Positions 38,577 through 47,950 of a stretch of DNA of 64,000 nucleotides are shown here, piece by piece (position 1 is the first letter of the stretch; the number at the start of each line of letters is the position of its first letter). A model generated the notes under the pieces. That model had not been told where the DNA came from. It was given only the letters and a program-made list of their open reading frames with translations, and did no database searches. A program made the position numbers and the translations under genes. The DNA is from a phage, in sequence record PZ452578.1, one strand, 5' to 3'.

Positions 38577-39050
38577 TTATTTGAATGATTTAACGTACTG
38601 AATAGAACCTTTACTATTCACAAAGGCAATTTTACCATTTTTGTTATACATGGTAGCAGTACGTTGATAGCCATAAGTTTGTTTACCAGATTGATAACCA
38701 ACTAATGCGAAATTATCTTCACCCATTTTATTCTGTTTAGCGCGAATACGTTCATGGCCATGTGCCATAAGAACCTTAGCATCACCAGTTGCAATGGATC
38801 TACGAGTTTTTTCATCTTCAACTGTATTAACAAAGTCGTCAAATGAATCAAATTTAGCATGAGATTTATTATACAGTTTTCCATCTACTGCATAATTATA
38901 TCCTTGTACATCCATCTCAACTTCTGTACCATCATCCAGTACAGCAGTGATTTTCTGTCCTTTTTTAAATTTCAAAAGATCAGTAAAAGATTCAGCAATA
39001 ATTTGAGAATTAATAGCTGCTTCAGTAATAAATTCTTGATAGGTTTTCAT
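38577..39050 (-). CDS. internal-protein-like head cargo protein with capsid targeting sequence
   Basis: 157 aa; N-terminus MKTYQEFITE matches the T4 internal-protein CTS consensus MKTYQEFIAE (prohead protease site L/I-x-E). Confidence 0.7.
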   Translation of the reverse strand: MKTYQEFITEAAINSQIIAESFTDLLKFKKGQKITAVLDDGTEVEMDVQGYNYAVDGKLYNKSHAKFDSFDDFVNTVEDEKTRRSIATGDAKVLMAHGHERIRAKQNKMGEDNFALVGYQSGKQTYGYQRTATMYNKNGKIAFVNSKGSIQYVKSFK

Positions 39051-39066: not shown

Positions 39067-39384
39067 TTATTCTTTAGGGAAGTTTTTAGAATATGCATCA
39101 TAAAGCTTATTTCCAATACGGCGGAAAACTCTAGCCGCAAAACGATTTTCTGGGTTTTTAATCATGATTTGCATCATATAAGTACCCGCGTCAGAAAGAG
39201 CTTCTTCATAGTACCCGTTAATTTCTTTAAGAGTCCTACGTTTACCACCAGGACCATCAACAGTGATTTTCCATTTACCTGTAGAAGTACGACTTGGCGG
39301 CTCAACTTGTTCAATCCAGATATAACCGCCTTCTACACGTTGTCCTGCAGCAGATTCTGCAATAAATTCTTGATATGTTTTCAT
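39067..39384 (-). CDS. internal-protein-like head cargo protein with capsid targeting sequence
   Basis: 105 aa; N-terminus MKTYQEFIAE identical to the CTS consensus; basic body. Confidence 0.7.
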   Translation of the reverse strand: MKTYQEFIAESAAGQRVEGGYIWIEQVEPPSRTSTGKWKITVDGPGGKRRTLKEINGYYEEALSDAGTYMMQIMIKNPENRFAARVFRRIGNKLYDAYSKNFPKE

Positions 39385-42283: not shown

Positions 42284-42877
42284 TTATTTCAGAGAATTAA
42301 TGTATTCCTGAACATCGGCAGAGGTAGTTTCAACCCCAGAAATATTGCCATTAAATGTTTCAACTCGGGCAAGAGTATCTTCAATATCAACCTTAGTCAG
42401 CGCTGCAATTTCAACTACATCATCAGCAGTACTAATTCCAAGTGCATTCGCTGCACGAGTTTCACGGATATATTCCAATTTAACTGCAAGTTCTTGGCGA
42501 GCATCATCTAACTCAACTACTTTCTTAGCGATTTCAATTCGCATTTCAGCATACCCATCAGCTTTAGTAGTCAGCTGTTCAGCTGTTCGACGATATAGCA
42601 AACCGAGTTTAGCATGCATTGTTACATCTTGACCTTCGGAAAGAAGCTTGCGAATTTCACGCTCTTTTGATTCAGCCTGTTTATTCTTTTCAATAACAAG
42701 TTCACGAATACGTTTTTCTTCATTAATAGATTTAACAGAAGCAGTTTTTAGATCTTTAATTTTATCAAGTAGTTTTGCTGCTGCAGCAGTATACTGTTCT
42801 TCAACAGATAGATTTTTAGCCATAGCAGAACCAAGTTTAGTGCGAATAAACTCAACAATTTTCTTCAGTGTGTTCAT
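42284..42877 (-). CDS. hypothetical coiled-coil protein
   Basis: 197 aa, predominantly helical with heptad character. Confidence 0.6.
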
Positions 42878-42917
42878 AGTATTTCCTTAGGTTAATTAAG
42901 ATTTAAAATCCATGAGA

Positions 42918-42944
42918 GTATTATACTCCGGATAGTTTGTAAAC
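42918..42944 (-). promoter_or_regulatory. phage early promoter
   Basis: Minus strand: GTTTAC (-35), spacer, GAGTATAAT (-10). Confidence 0.55.
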
Positions 42945-43165
42945 TATTTCAACATCGCCTTTTGCTGCTTTATAACCTTCAGCCCAAGATACAACCGAGT
43001 TTTTATCTGAAGATTCAAATTCTGGCATTGGGCTTTCGCCAATGTTCACGCAGTATGTTTCTTCATTTTCGTCGAACCAAATAATTAAAGTAGTCATTTA
43101 TTTCTCCGTTTCTGTATTTGTTTTGATAAGTCTATAATAACACCGTCCTTGGTGTTTGTATACAA

Positions 43166-43441
43166 TTATTTCATATTATTGAAATATTCTTCAGCAATTT
43201 CATCATTATCATGATAAACTTTAGAAGACAGTTTAACATAACCTTCTGCCGTGAACATGTTAATCACAACCTTTACAGTATACCACTGACCGTCTTCATT
43301 ACCCATTACTGCATAAGTTTCAAACATCGGATGGTCAGGACCGATAACTTTAATATCATTCACCGTACGACCAAAATCTTCTGAAACACATTTCATAAAG
43401 AAGTTGAACAGTTCACCGTAATTATCCATTTCATTCTCCAA
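43166..43441 (-). CDS. hypothetical protein
   Basis: 91-aa ORF about 25 nt downstream of the PeSL promoter start site. Confidence 0.55.
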   Translation of the reverse strand: MENEMDNYGELFNFFMKCVSEDFGRTVNDIKVIGPDHPMFETYAVMGNEDGQWYTVKVVINMFTAEGYVKLSSKVYHDNDEIAEEYFNNMK

Positions 43442-43467
43442 GTTGTTTTCTGTATCAGCAGTTGATA

Positions 43468-43502
43468 GTTGTATAGTACCATGGAAGAACAGGGATGTAA
43501 AC
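43468..43502 (-). promoter_or_regulatory. phage early promoter, PeSL-like repeat copy
   Basis: Same ~60-bp element as at 33-66, 26296-26326 and 28433-28466. Confidence 0.6.
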
Positions 43503-43635
43503 AGTTTTGTGAAAAAATTTTTAAAAAGTTTTAGGGAATTCTAGGGTCAGGAGGGGCAATTAAAAGGTAGGATAATATATTATAAAGGGTATAAACTAAA
43601 TGATGCCTAGAGAGGCCCGAAAAGGCCTAGATACC

Positions 43636-43666
43636 AAAAAGCCCCAACCTTTCGGTCGGGGCTAAG
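43636..43666 (-). terminator. intrinsic terminator, 31-bp repeat copy 1
   Basis: Minus-strand transcript GCCCCGAC-CGAAAG-GUUGGGGC plus U5; identical 31-bp sequence at 44191-44221. A second hairpin (AGGCC...GGCCU) follows at 43613-43629. Confidence 0.6.
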
Positions 43667-43670
43667 AATG

Positions 43671-44144
43671 TTATTTGATTTGTTTAGCAGACCAAATGCG
43701 GTCTTTAATAATTTTTTGGATGTCTTCAACATACTCAAGAGAGTGAGCATGTGGGTTATCTTTGAAACTATAAGCACGAGCTAGCTTTTGGCCTTCAGTT
43801 TTGATTACTAAAAGCTCTTTAAGGATAGCTTCATATTTAGAGATAATTCCTTTAACAATATTTTTTTCTTGTGCAGCTTTAGGATCTGCTTTAGGAGCAG
43901 GTTTACCTGAAGCCTTTGCAAAAGCAGCTCCAGTAGCAACTAAACTTTTCCAGGCCATACTAACCGCATTTCCTGTAAATCCTTCTGCTTTCATGTCGCG
44001 AGCAAATTGGAATCGTGATTCATCGGAAGCATCTTTATAGGAATATTTACCCGCGGCAATGGCTGCTTTTGCGACAGCTTGAATTTCGGTGCTAGATGCT
44101 TCATTTAACACCGCTTCATTTAAAAATTGAGCATATGATTTCAT
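43671..44144 (-). CDS. hypothetical Ala/Lys-rich protein with CTS-like N-terminus (candidate head cargo protein)
   Basis: 157 aa; N-terminus MKSYAQFLNE resembles the CTS (L-x-E cleavage context); a late promoter box lies upstream. Confidence 0.55.
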   Translation of the reverse strand: MKSYAQFLNEAVLNEASSTEIQAVAKAAIAAGKYSYKDASDESRFQFARDMKAEGFTGNAVSMAWKSLVATGAAFAKASGKPAPKADPKAAQEKNIVKGIISKYEAILKELLVIKTEGQKLARAYSFKDNPHAHSLEYVEDIQKIIKDRIWSAKQIK

Positions 44145-44180
44145 CTTATTTCCTGTTTTAATTCGTGGTTTTAATATATT

Positions 44181-44188
44181 TATTTATA
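44181..44188 (-). promoter_or_regulatory. late promoter (TATAAATA box)
   Basis: Minus strand TATAAATA about 35 nt upstream of the ATG at 44144. Confidence 0.5.
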
Positions 44189-44190
44189 CT

Positions 44191-44221
44191 AAAAAGCCCC
44201 AACCTTTCGGTCGGGGCTAAG
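44191..44221 (-). terminator. intrinsic terminator, 31-bp repeat copy 2 (end of the tRNA operon)
   Basis: Identical to 43636-43666; hairpin plus U-tract on the minus-strand transcript. Confidence 0.6.
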
Positions 44222-44269
44222 CCTTGCGGCAACCTTGTCGGGGTTCCACCTGCTAAGGCAAGTGTTTGT

Positions 44270-44361
44270 ACGAAACGCCGGGATTCGAACCCGGTTATTA
44301 AGCAGTTGACGCTACTCAATATTTTTAAAAGGCCATATCTCGACCATATCCGAACGTTCCG
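44270..44361 (-). ncRNA. tRNA-like small RNA (canonical acceptor and T-arm, non-canonical anticodon region)
   Basis: Minus strand: 7-bp acceptor stem CGGAACG/CGUUUCG and T-arm CCGGG-UUCGAAU-CCCGG, but no regular anticodon stem-loop; about 92 nt. Confidence 0.35.
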
Positions 44362-44534
44362 TCAAAAACGCTACTCGGCTTACGGCAAAGATATTTCCTC
44401 GAATCGATAATTCGGTGCGCCGTTTCTGCTGTGATATAAGTGGACATTAACAAAACATAAAGATTTATTAATGCCAGTCCTTAAACAGGGAACATCAGTC
44501 CGACGACTTACCGGTAGCGACCCGGCTTCTTGTT

Positions 44535-44610
44535 TGGTCGAGGCAGTAGGAATCGAACCTACGACCTAGGACTTAGAAGGTCCTTGCTCTTCCTTCTGAG
44601 CTATGCCTCG
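44535..44610 (-). tRNA. tRNA-Arg (anticodon UCU)
   Basis: Hand-folded cloverleaf: acceptor CGAGGCA/UGCCUCG, anticodon loop CUUCUAA, T-loop UUCGAUU, encoded CCA. Confidence 0.8.
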
Positions 44611-44614
44611 GATT

Positions 44615-44689
44615 TGGCGGACGTGATAGGATTCGAACCTATAACCAATCGCTTAACAGGCGATCGCTCTGCCATTGAGCTACACATCC
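44615..44689 (-). tRNA. tRNA-Asn (anticodon GUU)
   Basis: Hand-folded: acceptor GGAUGUG/CACGUCC (one G-U), anticodon loop CUGUUAA, T-loop UUCGAAU, encoded CCA. Confidence 0.75.
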
Positions 44690-44693
44690 AAAT

Positions 44694-44780
44694 TGGTGGG
44701 GAGTGATGGAGTCGAACCACCCGAGTCGCAATGACAATGGATTTACAGTCCACACCGCTACCTCTACGGGATAACTCCCC
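44694..44780 (-). tRNA. tRNA-Tyr (anticodon GUA), type II with long variable arm
   Basis: Hand-folded: acceptor GGGGAGU/ACUCCCC, anticodon loop CUGUAAA, long variable arm, T-loop UUCGACU, encoded CCA. Confidence 0.75.
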
Positions 44781-44789
44781 TAATTAATT

Positions 44790-44864
44790 TGGTGGCCCTG
44801 GGTGGAATTGAACCACCATCTGGCGATTATGAGTCGCTTGCTTGAACCTTCCAGCTACAGGGCC
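44790..44864 (-). tRNA. tRNA with CAU anticodon (Ile2/lysidine-type or Met)
   Basis: Hand-folded: acceptor GGCCCUG/CAGGGCC, anticodon loop CUCAUAA, T-loop UUCAAUU, encoded CCA. Confidence 0.7.
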
Positions 44865-44865
44865 T

Positions 44866-44941
44866 TGGTGCTGATTGACGGAATCGAACCGCCGACCTTC
44901 TCATTACAAGTGAGTTGCTCTACCTACTGAGCTAAATCAGC
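44866..44941 (-). tRNA. tRNA-Thr (anticodon UGU)
   Basis: Hand-folded: acceptor GCUGAUU/AAUCAGC, anticodon loop CUUGUAA, T-loop UUCGAUU, encoded CCA. Confidence 0.8.
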
Positions 44942-44946
44942 AAAAC

Positions 44947-45036
44947 TGGCGGAGGCGATAGGATTTGAACCTATGAGTCGCCGGAGCGACTGCCGGTTTT
45001 CAAGACCGGTGCATTAAACCACTCTGCCACGCCTCC
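44947..45036 (-). tRNA. tRNA-Ser (anticodon UGA), type II
   Basis: Hand-folded: acceptor GGAGGCG/CGCCUCC, anticodon loop CUUGAAA, long variable arm, T-loop UUCAAAU, encoded CCA. Confidence 0.8.
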
Positions 45037-45038
45037 AG

Positions 45039-45112
45039 TCTCCATACAAGGATTTGAACCTTGGACCTCCTGATCCCAAATCAGGCGCTCTACCAAACTG
45101 AGCTACACGGAG
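45039..45112 (-). tRNA. tRNA-Pro (anticodon UGG)
   Basis: Hand-folded: acceptor CUCCGUG/UAUGGAG, anticodon loop UUUGGGA, T-loop UUCAAAU; CCA not encoded. Confidence 0.75.
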
Positions 45113-45122
45113 TAAATTAAAT

Positions 45123-45196
<74 letters not shown>

Positions 45197-45201
45197 AAAT
45201 T

Positions 45202-45288
45202 TGGTGCGAGAAGTGGGACTCGAACCCACAAGGAAATCATTCCGCAGCATTTTAAGTGCTGTGCCTTTACCAATTTGACCATTCTCGC
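45202..45288 (-). tRNA. tRNA-Leu (anticodon UAA), type II
   Basis: Hand-folded: acceptor GCGAGAA/UUCUCGC, anticodon loop CUUAAAA, long variable arm, T-loop UUCGAGU, encoded CCA. Confidence 0.8.
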
Positions 45289-45289
45289 G

Positions 45290-45362
45290 CTGGGAATAAA
45301 GGACTCGAACCTTTGCATCCTGGAATCAAAATCCAGTGCCTTACCAACTTGGCTAATTCCCA
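45290..45362 (-). tRNA. tRNA-Gln (anticodon UUG)
   Basis: Hand-folded: acceptor UGGGAAU/AUUCCCA, anticodon loop UUUUGAU, T-loop UUCGAGU; CCA not encoded. Confidence 0.8.
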
Positions 45363-45448
45363 ATTATTAACAAAGGCTCTCAAACAAGAACCCTTGATGA
45401 TAGAGGGTATTAATCAGTGCGGTATGAGTTAATAATAACAAATAATTC

Positions 45449-45964
45449 TTAAAGCAAATTAAACATTTTAACAGTCGGCAAAACAATTTCTTCTTCGATA
45501 TAAGCAAATTCTACATGTTCAACTACACGCAAGAAATCATATTCATAGTATTCAGAAGCATGACCAAGAATATCAATGAGGCCTTCAGATATCTTATTAC
45601 CATTCACAAAGAATAAATCAAATACACGTTCTTCGTCTTCTTCGGATTTATTACCAAGGTCAACTTCTATATCAAAAACCTTTTTAATGAATTCTGGATA
45701 AAGTTGTTCTGAGAACAGTCCTTCAACCAAATATTCATATATAAAAAGCTCTTGCTCGCTGAACAACCCATTACCACAATAACGGTCAGCTTTAGTGCTA
45801 GAATGACGACTCTTAAACTTCTTCAAAAGATATTTAAATTGTTGGAGCTCATGCTCTTCTACGCCAAACAGTGTTTTGGTTTTATAGTTATCACCATCAT
45901 TTTCCCAGGTAGTGACATCAATTACGTAACCCTTAGGAATTGTGCTGCCTAAACGAATATACAT
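45449..45964 (-). CDS. hypothetical acidic protein
   Basis: 171-aa ORF upstream of the tRNA cluster. Confidence 0.55.
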   Translation of the reverse strand: MYIRLGSTIPKGYVIDVTTWENDGDNYKTKTLFGVEEHELQQFKYLLKKFKSRHSSTKADRYCGNGLFSEQELFIYEYLVEGLFSEQLYPEFIKKVFDIEVDLGNKSEEDEERVFDLFFVNGNKISEGLIDILGHASEYYEYDFLRVVEHVEFAYIEEEIVLPTVKMFNLL

Positions 45965-46254
45965 TTGTTCACCATATTAATGTAAGTATATTTAATACAT
46001 TCAAGACCCAAAGGATTCTTGAAAATATCATATTCAAGAGGACCTTTTTCTGTTTCAATAAAGAAATCAAAATTTACTGTATTAAATTTACGGTCTTCCT
46101 TCACTAATTTAACTTGAGAAGATGAACGGTCAATGTAAACCTTTTCAACTTCAAAACATGTTAAAATGCCATAATCATCAATCAAGGCTTTAGCCGCATC
46201 TTGATCATATTTATATCCATTTTCAACGGACGATACTTTCGCATAAAGAATCAT
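45949..46254 (-). CDS. hypothetical protein
   Basis: 101-aa ORF. Confidence 0.5.
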   Translation of the reverse strand: MILYAKVSSVENGYKYDQDAAKALIDDYGILTCFEVEKVYIDRSSSQVKLVKEDRKFNTVNFDFFIETEKGPLEYDIFKNPLGLECIKYTYINMVNKCIFV

Positions 46255-46256
46255 TA

Positions 46257-46646
46257 TTAGCCTTCATCAACAATAGTATGAGTATGGGCATTTACAATTT
46301 GCCACCAATCAAAGCGATTGGAACCATACATTGGTTTGTTTTCATTTTCTTTGATAATATCACGAAGTTCATCTTCGGTAGCGGCTTTCGCGATTAAATC
46401 AGCATATCCACCACGAGGATAATAATTATCACCTGCAAAAAGTAAAAAATTTGGTTTAATATTATTAAACTCTTCAAGAGTAATAACTGTTCCACCAGGT
46501 TGAACAATATCTACATAACTATATCCTAATTTTTGAGCAGCATCTACTGCTTCAAGCAGGGTATCATGAGCCCATCCAATTTGGCAATCTGGCTTTTCAG
46601 ATGGATTAGCTTGATAATCTGCATACACTTTATACATTCTATTCAC
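46257..46646 (-). CDS. hypothetical protein
   Basis: 129-aa ORF. Confidence 0.55.
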   Translation of the reverse strand: MNRMYKVYADYQANPSEKPDCQIGWAHDTLLEAVDAAQKLGYSYVDIVQPGGTVITLEEFNNIKPNFLLFAGDNYYPRGGYADLIAKAATEDELRDIIKENENKPMYGSNRFDWWQIVNAHTHTIVDEG

Positions 46647-46824
46647 CTTTAGAAATTTTATCCATAACGATAGCGATTAAACCAATTAAAAATGCTACTA
46701 CAAGTGAAAAAACATTTTCTGCTGTAGTCAATAATCCGCATATAAATCCAACAAACATTGAAAAACTAAAAGCAGAAGCAGAAATTGCAATAGCAACATT
46801 TCGAATTAATTCACAACGTTTCAT
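46639..46824 (-). CDS. small membrane protein
   Basis: 61 aa, largely one or two hydrophobic helices. Confidence 0.5.
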   Translation of the reverse strand: MKRCELIRNVAIAISASAFSFSMFVGFICGLLTTAENVFSLVVAFLIGLIAIVMDKISKGE

Positions 46825-46844
46825 TTTATTCTCCTCAGTAGTTG

Positions 46845-46882
46845 ATAGGGTAATAGTATCACTACTAAAACCCTATGTAAAC
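46845..46882 (-). promoter_or_regulatory. phage early promoter with the -10 inside a 7-bp inverted repeat
   Basis: Minus strand GTTTAC (-35), spacer, GTGATACTATTACC (-10 region); inverted repeat ATAGGGT/ACCCTAT at 46845-46851 and 46870-46876. Confidence 0.5.
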
Positions 46883-46901
46883 AACTTTGTGAAATTGTTT
46901 A

Positions 46902-47192
46902 TTACAAAAGATTTTTAGCAATAATCTTGAGATGTGCTGCAGAAATGTGTTTAGCTTTAAACAACGCAGTTTCTTCAGCAGGAGAGATAACGATTGTAGC
47001 ACCATCCTTTTTAGCAGACCACCCATCACCTAAGTAAACAGTACCTTTGATTTCTTCGCCATCAACCAGACTAATCATTGGTTTACCTTCTCGTCCTTTA
47101 TTTGCTTTAATAACTTCAGAAGTAAGAGTAGCTTCGGTAATGGTAGAAACCGGGGTAGTTGTAGTAGAAGTAAATTCTTTAAATGTTTTCAT
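46902..47192 (-). CDS. ipI: internal protein I precursor (head-packaged anti-restriction protein)
   Basis: 96 aa; N-terminal MKTFKEF...TITE with an I-x-E protease site at residue 20 would leave a 76-aa mature protein, matching IPI* size; immediately upstream of 57B as in T4. Confidence 0.7.
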   Translation of the reverse strand: MKTFKEFTSTTTTPVSTITEATLTSEVIKANKGREGKPMISLVDGEEIKGTVYLGDGWSAKKDGATIVISPAEETALFKAKHISAAHLKIIAKNLL

Positions 47193-47212
47193 TTTTATTT
47201 TCCTAATTAATT

Positions 47213-47253
47213 TTGATGAGGTAATAGTATCACTACCTCATCAACGTGTAAAC
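47213..47253 (-). promoter_or_regulatory. phage early promoter with the -10 inside an 11-bp inverted repeat, upstream of ipI
   Basis: GTTTAC (-35) at 47248-47253; inverted repeat TTGATGAGGTA/TACCTCATCAA (47213-47223 and 47234-47244) flanks the -10 region. Confidence 0.5.
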
Positions 47254-47265
47254 AACTTTGTGAAA

Positions 47266-47950
<685 letters not shown>

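Follow-up and report, generated by a model that had tools for sequence, protein, structure and literature searches.

A candidate internal head protein gene between terminator repeats at the rnaC/e.8 junction of a T4-like phage

Internal proteins and repeat-flanked genes of T-even phages

The 64,000-nucleotide stretch of phage DNA analysed here (sequence record PZ452578.1, called the window below) is a mosaic Tequatrovirus (T4-like) genome that carries, between rnaC and e.8, a minus-strand gene of 157 codons (43671..44144). We propose that this gene encodes a previously unnamed internal (Ip) protein of the T-even phages and forms a late module at a third Ip site, a reading to which we give a probability of roughly three in four. 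As an unnamed Ip member it adds to a concept that is already established: head cargo directed by an N-terminal tag, and genes shuffled through repeats. In T4, residues 1-10 of IPIII suffice to load the protein into the head: residues 4 and 7 are the main determinants of targeting, residues 8 and 10 govern processing, and gp21 cleaves after the Glu of an L/I-x-E motif (PMC9026906, a review of Black's work). Ip1, Ip2 and Ip3 are inhibitors of GmrSD type IV restriction enzymes, a different one in each case (Silas 2025), and Bas37_0260, a tag-bearing protein at the ipI locus of phage Bas37, inhibits McrBC. Polymorphic internal proteins with the tag alone in common have been known in T-even phages since Repoila et al. 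1994 (as cited), ipIV-ipVI of phage PST being examples of such genes. Two Ip loci are described in Silas 2025, and the rnaC/e.8 site is not among them. The other described system that comes close is that of the PeSL cassettes of T4-type phages, in which small open reading frames (ORFs) are gained and lost through repeats and which their authors linked to the Ip locus (PMC4122927); the formation of mini-circles by recombination between flanking repeats has been demonstrated (PMC2839356).

The candidate resembles T4 internal proteins of the IPIII type in its tag, with an aromatic residue at position 4, Phe at position 7 and L/I-x-E at positions 8-10, and in its small, basic predicted mature protein. 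Like them, it is non-essential and missing from some close relatives, and it lies in the same 10-kb stretch (ipII/ipIII, e, tRNAs, ipI). It differs from them in its unrelated cargo, the tag alone being alignable by BLAST or hhalign, in its position at rnaC/e.8 with a late box only, and in being more conserved across genera. With the polymorphic Ip genes (Repoila 1994, PST ipIV-ipVI, Bas37_0260) it shares the pattern of unrelated small proteins that have a tag in common and differ between close relatives, as well as conserved flanking regulatory motifs that are thought to mediate shuffling. Those genes, however, occupy the ipI and ipII/ipIII loci, and the candidate's family is labelled 'hypothetical' everywhere we examined it.

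The comparison with the PeSL/PmSL cassettes (Arbiol 2010; Comeau 2014) is similarly two-sided. In both cases a stem-loop terminator and a promoter stand on both sides of a dispensable ORF, the indels of close relatives end in repeats, and a model of excision and integration via small circles applies. At the rnaC/e.8 junction, however, the repeated element is the terminator hairpin alone, 36 nt long and present in two copies in the 64-kb window, and the promoter behind the upstream copy is a late TATAAATA box, not an early sigma-70-type or a middle one. Four points are new with respect to the described members: the third site, the terminator-only repeat with a late promoter, the conservation across genera and an unassigned cargo fold.

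A conserved gene and its N-terminal tag

The 157-residue ORF starting with MKSYAQFLNE, which an earlier note on this DNA had picked out, is indeed present at 43671..44144. A Shine-Dalgarno sequence (AGGAAA, 44149..44154, minus strand), read directly from the DNA, stands 4 nt ahead of its ATG and is kept in the compared loci. Using tblastn, the protein was found in 512 phage records, 367 of them at 95% identity or more; the lowest of the remaining matches, in Klebsiella phages, are at about 59% and cover only part of the protein. RB27, AR1, HY01 and Bas42 (AndreasVesalius) are among the carriers. One genomic place for the gene was seen per record, and no movement to other sites. Pairwise ratios of nonsynonymous to synonymous substitution rates (dN/dS) between the window's gene and the homologues of phiD1, fPS-90, SYGD1, RB27, JK36 and IME341 lie between 0.04 and 0.10, with dS up to about 2, indicating that the minus-strand 157-codon frame is under strong purifying selection. 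Homologues span four genera (Tequatrovirus, Mosigvirus, Dhakavirus and the Klebsiella Jiaodavirus), and the gene is much more strongly conserved across genera than the canonical Ip loci.

Annotation has so far left this family aside. Feature names and the source names of a 216-member cluster give only 'hypothetical', 'uncharacterized' or 'phage protein', and the sole PHROG assignment is phrog_2280 ('unknown function'). The family is unnamed in the records and sources examined, and a mention in Repoila 1994 or in a later list is possible. A HMMER profile searched against 1.84 billion representatives returned only 13 matches, all of them members of this same phage protein family. Five other ORFs in this region (43607-43777, 43808-43939 and 44158-44319 on the minus strand, 43801-44040 and 44165-44410 on the plus strand) were rejected as genes because they overlap the conserved 157-residue frame, or rnaC and hairpin sequence.

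The first ten codons (44115..44144, minus strand) encode the predicted capsid targeting sequence, MKSYAQFLNE, which terminates in the gp21 motif L-N-E. The earlier note had likened it to the T4 tag MKTYQEFIAE, and the likeness extends to every functional position: when IPIII (M-K-T-Y-Q-E-F-I-A-E) and the candidate (M-K-S-Y-A-Q-F-L-N-E) are set side by side, the Y4, F7, L8 and E10 positions are all kept. The targeting residues are thus an aromatic residue and Phe (Y4, F7), the processing motif is L8-N9-E10, and Ala comes next, as in IPIII. A second L-N-E spans residues 13-15, codon 15 ending at 44100. Cleavage at E10 would leave A11 (AVLNEASSTEIQAVAK) as the predicted N-terminus, and cleavage at E15 would leave A16 (ASSTEIQAVAK). 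Of the 628 ATG frames with 40 codons or more in the window, 3 begin with the pattern M-x-x-[YF]-x-x-F-[ILV]-x-E, where chance predicts 0.04; the N-terminal match is far beyond chance. The other two frames with this pattern (38577-39050 and 39067-39384) belong to the ipII/ipIII locus.

Conservation of the tag extends to the whole family. All full-length distant relatives retain M-x-x-[FY]-x-x-F-[LV]-x-E or a nearby I-x-E site, and the tags found include MKTYNEFLNE, MKSYAEFLTE, MLKFNEFLAE, MINFSDFLNE, MKSFSSFLNE and MISFNEFVDGNLITE, together with MLEYSEFLKE in Yersinia phage fHe-Yen9-01 and MKFKEFLAE in Klebsiella phage KP01. In the Klebsiella and Yersinia phage relatives they are retained where the rest of the protein is at 39-44% identity or less, a signature of selection on the tag itself. 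At the DNA level, the tag codons differ from the ipIII codons at about one third of positions, and hence the likeness does not stem from recent copying of the 5' end of an ip gene.

Evidence from virions comes from Yersinia phage fD1 (phiD1, HE956711), which carries the cassette and whose g140 product is 99% identical to the candidate. The fD1 annotation table marks g140 as 'PPAP' (particle-associated, from liquid chromatography-tandem mass spectrometry of purified virions) and lists no T4 homologue for it. Of the 277 phage proteins, 113-137 were detected in that study, among them DenV, lysozyme and NudE, together with 672 host proteins; with so permissive a proteome the flag lifts the odds of packaging only modestly. 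The fD1 virion data are public as PXD026812, and the phage also has an ipIV-like 'head protein', g129. In the HY01 paper one of five major virion bands is an unnamed hypothetical protein; HY01 has the gene, and the band was not matched to a gene. A literature search for Tequatrovirus virion proteomes gave nothing beyond the fD1 and HY01 reports.

These data bear on a different view of the gene, namely that it encodes a late, non-virion protein whose N-terminus is a mere relic of the 5' end of an ip gene. The packaging data are of low specificity, cytoplasmic enzymes being listed in the particle proteome of fD1 too, as this view would allow. Yet a relic would have decayed, while the tag residues persist in relatives at such low identity and with synonymous sites saturated, and the tag codons are no recent copy of ipIII. 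We therefore consider a non-virion protein improbable. From the sequence features, packaging of the candidate and its processing by gp21 appear likely.

Flanking hairpins, late promoter box and site occupancy

Read along the minus strand, the locus consists of the 3' flank of rnaC, a hairpin, the TATAAATA box, the ribosome-binding site, the ORF, a copy of the hairpin, a different hairpin and the early promoter of e.8. The two hairpin copies form a direct repeat of 36 nt with one mismatch, at 44186..44221 upstream and at 43631..43666 downstream of the gene. The 31-bp repeats of the earlier note correspond to the inner 31 nt, which are identical on both sides within this longer unit. It had also predicted a hairpin with a U-tract on the minus-strand transcript at each copy; the hairpin is there, with a stem of 10 bp (one G-U pair) rather than 8, reading AGCCCCGACC-GAAA-GGTTGGGGCT and followed by TTTT. 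The upstream copy, with its stem at 44195-44218, GAAA loop and U-tract, is an intrinsic terminator to which the single copy of T4 is orthologous; the downstream copy (stem 43640-43663) would be the terminator of the gene itself. The hairpin has an energy of -20.3 kcal/mol (z = -3.3 and -3.8), and the two copies are the sole terminator-like sites scored in 42800-47400. Further copies with up to 3 mismatches are absent from the window, and 0.00 are expected by chance; a dispersed repeat family was rejected on this ground, the window holding two copies only. The second, different hairpin (43601..43636, minus strand, with a G+C core at 43614-43627) is common to T4 and lies downstream of the indel.

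Comparing the flanking repeats across T4-like genomes, as the earlier note had proposed, gave a single copy in T4 and an unrelated downstream hairpin in Dhakavirus. The 5' arm of the hairpin varies between genomes but agrees between the two copies of one genome: it is CCCCGACC in both copies of the window and CCCCTTCC in both copies of JK36, RB27 has CCCCAGCC and CCCTAGCC, and SYGD1 is mixed. This pattern suggests that the flanking copies recombine or undergo gene conversion with each other.

A T4-type late promoter box, TATAAATA, lies at 44181..44188 (minus strand), directly after the upstream U-tract and 36 nt upstream of the ATG, where it had been predicted. The window contains this 8-mer 12 times against 10.95 expected, and by itself it carries no weight; we rejected it as evidence on its own. 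What gives it weight is its place immediately behind the U-tract and its invariance across eight Tequatrovirus loci in which the bases around it vary. In Mosigvirus and Dhakavirus the box reads AATAAATA, and the fPS-90 record annotates the same box as a predicted late promoter. The arrangement of PeSL units, a stem-loop followed by an early sigma-70-type promoter, a Shine-Dalgarno sequence and an ATG, does not occur at the upstream copy; only the downstream copy has an early promoter fitting the consensus TTTACW-N17-TAYWAT (taken from PMC4122927), about 130 nt further on.

The chance-level count of TATAAATA is the sole point in favour of regarding the ORF and the repeat as chance features or an annotation artefact. 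This explanation is already refuted by the repeat expectation of 0.00, the presence of the gene in 512 records, the purifying selection on it and the fD1 peptides found by mass spectrometry.

Compared with T4, the window is longer here by 555 bp, made up of a single repeat copy and 519 bp of unique sequence. T4 has one hairpin copy, the alignment of the two genomes breaks inside this hairpin repeat, and PST is likewise empty at the site. To survey occupancy we built an artificial 'empty site', searched the phage collection with it, and sorted by span a spread sample of 36 records in which the site is covered in full. The site was empty in 6/36 records (span of about 636 bp) and held the 157-residue gene only (state A, about 1190 bp) in 21/36; another insert stood alone (state B, about 1315 bp) in 3/36, and both genes were present in the other 6/36 (about 1870 bp). 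Sequence or annotation confirmed the states in phiD1 (A only), T4_ev151 (B only) and fPS-90, G50, MLP2 and JB75 (A then B).

Insert B encodes a basic 187-residue protein (isoelectric point, pI, of 9.5) that starts with MKTYAEFLTEAAKLPSE (MKTYAEFLTEA), bears the tag and is likewise assigned to phrog_2280. Its gene (1276-1839 of the fPS-90 locus sequence) is found in 165 phage records, all 'hypothetical' save for one evidently spurious source name. It occupies the rnaC/e.8 junction alone or downstream of the 157-residue gene, and is absent from the window. The insert is joined right after the hairpin U-tract, and the 3' end of its own terminal hairpin, GGGCTTTTTGGTATC, recreates the junction. 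Thus indels at this site end in the repeated motif, as they do in PeSL cassettes: the T4 break falls within the hairpin, and the 187-residue gene is joined at the same U-tract.

The gene is dispensable and polymorphic among close relatives, being absent from T4 and PST, truncated in some phages and part of four site states. Shortened or frameshifted alleles are 111 residues long in SfPhi01, 97 in G28 and T4_ev240, and 78 in KpV477 (1795-2031 of its locus sequence), and their occurrence in several phages fits dispensability. The description of the locus as a self-contained, exchangeable cassette is thus right as to its own promoter and terminators and an indel that ends in the repeat; exchange amounts to presence or absence at one site, and no movement elsewhere was seen.

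As for the direction of the event, the gene directly follows the conserved rnaC 3' flank and the hairpin both in Mosigvirus (JK36, mobillu) and in Dhakavirus (IME341, 04086), where the homologues have 80-81% amino-acid identity and dS of 1.6-2.1, and Klebsiella Jiaodavirus KpV477 has its truncated copy near tRNA genes. The downstream terminator of Dhakavirus is a different, unrelated hairpin, showing that the duplicate repeat is not required for the presence of the gene. The shared place in other genera and the different terminator make the gene look ancestral to the site, and the empty state of T4 and PST is best explained by a deletion between the direct repeats; the reverse reaction, re-acquisition of the cassette, is possible. 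One can also suppose that the cassette is a recent insertion in this lineage, for instance through a circular intermediate at the rnaC terminator, rather than an ancestral gene lost by T4. An indel ending inside the repeat fits either direction, RB49 and phi1 have been shown to form mini-circles between flanking regulatory repeats (PMC2839356), and the 187-residue gene has clearly been gained or lost at the same junction. Against this stand the same position in Mosigvirus and Dhakavirus, the copy near the tRNA cluster in the Klebsiella Jiaodavirus, the unrelated terminator of Dhakavirus and parsimony, which favours loss in T4 and PST, so that a recent insertion seems unlikely.

Predicted packaging, possible role and genomic surroundings

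The predicted mature protein has 142-147 residues, 15.5-16.0 kDa and a pI of 9.5-9.6, and is small and basic as internal proteins are; pI values of the window's other tag-bearing proteins are 9.0-9.6. After the predicted cleavage we counted 18% Ala and 14% Lys, in agreement with the Ala/Lys-rich composition reported earlier. Structure prediction, which had been suggested as a check, gave an AlphaFold2 model with a mean predicted local distance difference test score (pLDDT) of 73.8, in which residues 1-15 are disordered (pLDDT below 50), a three-helix N-domain spans residues 18-71, a Pro/Lys/Ala linker follows at 72-87 (KPAPKADPKAAQEK) and a long helical hairpin occupies 88-154.

The cargo has no match in sequence or fold. 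Pfam gave sub-threshold noise alone, with no match to IPI_T4 (PF11634) above threshold, NCBIfam gave no match, and neither did a sequence-profile search of the PDB. Foldseek against BFVD and the PDB returned the candidate's own family, and its other hits were helical and at chance level (E above 0.7). When the protein was compared with T4 IPIII or with the 187-residue neighbour, BLASTP and hhalign could align the first 11-27 residues only. The cargo thus falls outside Pfam IPI_T4 and outside the PHROG internal virion and head families; homology to a non-packaged protein, which would speak against head cargo, was also not found in the profile and fold searches. The family itself is a domain mosaic: the N-domain (residues ~16-75, GKYSYKD...AWKS) is common to its members, while in Klebsiella and Yersinia phage members the C-half is swapped for an unrelated helical segment that is faintly like the C-half of the 187-residue neighbour. 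This faint likeness may explain why both genes are assigned to phrog_2280.

Taken together, the tag residues, their family-wide conservation, the basic protein, the conserved box, the indel ending in the repeat, the second tag-bearing gene at the site and the fD1 homologue support the idea, first raised in the earlier note, of an internal-protein-like candidate cargo. We propose the following course of events. The upstream hairpin, which has an orthologue in T4, would end the early tRNA-rnaD-rnaC transcript. Late transcription would then start at TATAAATA, read the 157 codons and stop at the second hairpin, as sequence and conservation suggest. Judging from the conserved residues, MKSYAQFLNE would serve as a capsid targeting sequence through which the protein reaches the scaffolding core of the prohead; gp21 would then cut after E10 and/or E15 at L-x-E, and the product, basic, all-helical and of ~15.5-16 kDa, would stay in the head alongside the DNA. 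By analogy with known internal proteins, it might enter the cell with the DNA and act ahead of phage gene expression, most likely by blocking a host defence and alternatively by binding DNA. The two 36-nt direct repeats would make the 555-bp unit easy to delete, as in T4 and PST, and could allow its re-acquisition by homologous recombination in mixed infections.

Several observations weigh against an Ip protein or against its having an anti-defence role. Besides the chance-level count of the box and the permissiveness of the fD1 proteome, the gene lies outside the ipI and ipII/ipIII loci, and the accounts of the Ip genes consulted name two loci, although location there is not strictly defining. 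T4 ipI-III lie behind early-type promoters, while the candidate has a late box only. An internal L-K-E at residues 108-110 is also potentially cleavable. Strong conservation across four genera sets the gene apart from the canonical Ip loci, which are prone to swapping, and is as compatible with a structural housekeeping function as with an arms race. Finally, with a cargo that has no detectable relative in sequence or fold, an anti-defence role is argued on analogy alone; it is plausible.

The nature of the cargo is where readings diverge most. The protein could be a packaged structural or DNA-associated core protein that aids head assembly or DNA condensation, instead of an effector that blocks defences. 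The strong purifying selection and the single site shared by Tequatrovirus, Mosigvirus, Dhakavirus and Klebsiella phages are in keeping with this, and so are the basic, Ala/Lys-rich composition and the linker KPAPKADPKAAQEK, which in our own reading is reminiscent of DNA-binding tails. IPIII mutants have a lower burst size and more polyheads (PMC9026906), and IPIII was long thought to be such a core protein. But the gene is dispensable, being missing from T4, PST and further Tequatroviruses and truncated in some phages, and all four Ips with a known target (4/4), IPIII included, are restriction inhibitors. A core protein is rather unlikely on balance. A more specific form of the defence-blocking hypothesis, which we offer tentatively, takes the rnaC/e.8 junction as a third Ip locus of the Tevenvirinae holding zero to two tag-bearing genes, whose main occupant would be a conserved, helical, basic family of injected proteins in four genera that neutralises a defence not yet tied to any Ip, perhaps a GmrSD/McrBC-like type IV variant or another system.

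Five active GmrSD groups tested in Silas et al. 2025 are without a known inhibitor. The 157- and 187-residue families provide two widespread candidates for such inhibitors, with 512 and 165 records respectively, among them therapeutic phages and phages of the BASEL collection, and the finding is therefore a concrete lead for anti-restriction screens. The empty, A, B and A+B states form a natural presence/absence series for host range. Recognising both families would also improve annotation and extend the Ip repertoire to a third site.

With regard to the wider surroundings, the 1.1 kb around the gene match 736 phage records with a top identity of 97.8%, and over the surrounding 20 kb the closest relative is RB27, at 96.7% identity at best. 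The gene order on the minus strand is T4-like: 57B, ipI, trna.4-.2, ten tRNAs, rnaD, rnaC, the cassette, e.8, e.6 and e.5. The ten contiguous tRNA genes (44535-45362, minus strand) are Arg, Asn, Tyr, Met, Thr, Ser, Pro, Gly, Leu and Gln, and rnaD follows directly downstream of tRNA-Arg (44535-44610, minus strand). The cluster is without the homing endonuclease gene segB, which in T4 interrupts eight tRNA genes. An Rfam scan over the rnaC/rnaD stretch gave no match, and for this reason the coordinates of both were transferred from T4 by pairwise alignment: rnaD (species 2 RNA) lies at 44414..44533 and rnaC (species 1 RNA), the last gene of the tRNA transcription unit, at 44269..44407, both on the minus strand. 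The RB27 record annotates rnaC and rnaD at the same relative position upstream of the candidate's homologue.

On the other side, comparison with T4 identifies the conserved right-hand neighbour of the site as e.8 (43166..43429, minus strand). Its early promoter, TTTACA-N17-TACTAT (43473..43501, minus strand), is a copy of repeat family D1 and forms a PeSL-like unit with the hairpins upstream. The same promoter makes up each of two 59-nt direct repeats, 81% identical, that flank ipI (46842-46900 and 47213-47271), with a third copy at 43462-43520, just downstream of the cassette, serving as the e.8 promoter. The ipI gene itself (46902-47192, minus strand; Pfam IPI_T4 match, E = 7.5e-54) is 2.7 kb from the candidate gene. 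Considering the repeats around ipI and around the cassette, every Ip gene here stands between repeated regulatory modules whose type differs by locus. At the ipII/ipIII locus of the window, T4 ipII and ipIII themselves are absent, and two different tag-bearing genes are found instead, both on the minus strand: a 105-residue ORF starting with MKTYQEFIAES (39067-39384; PHROG 3966, 'unknown function') and an ipIV-like gene of 157 residues (38577-39050; phrog_3155, 'internal virion protein').

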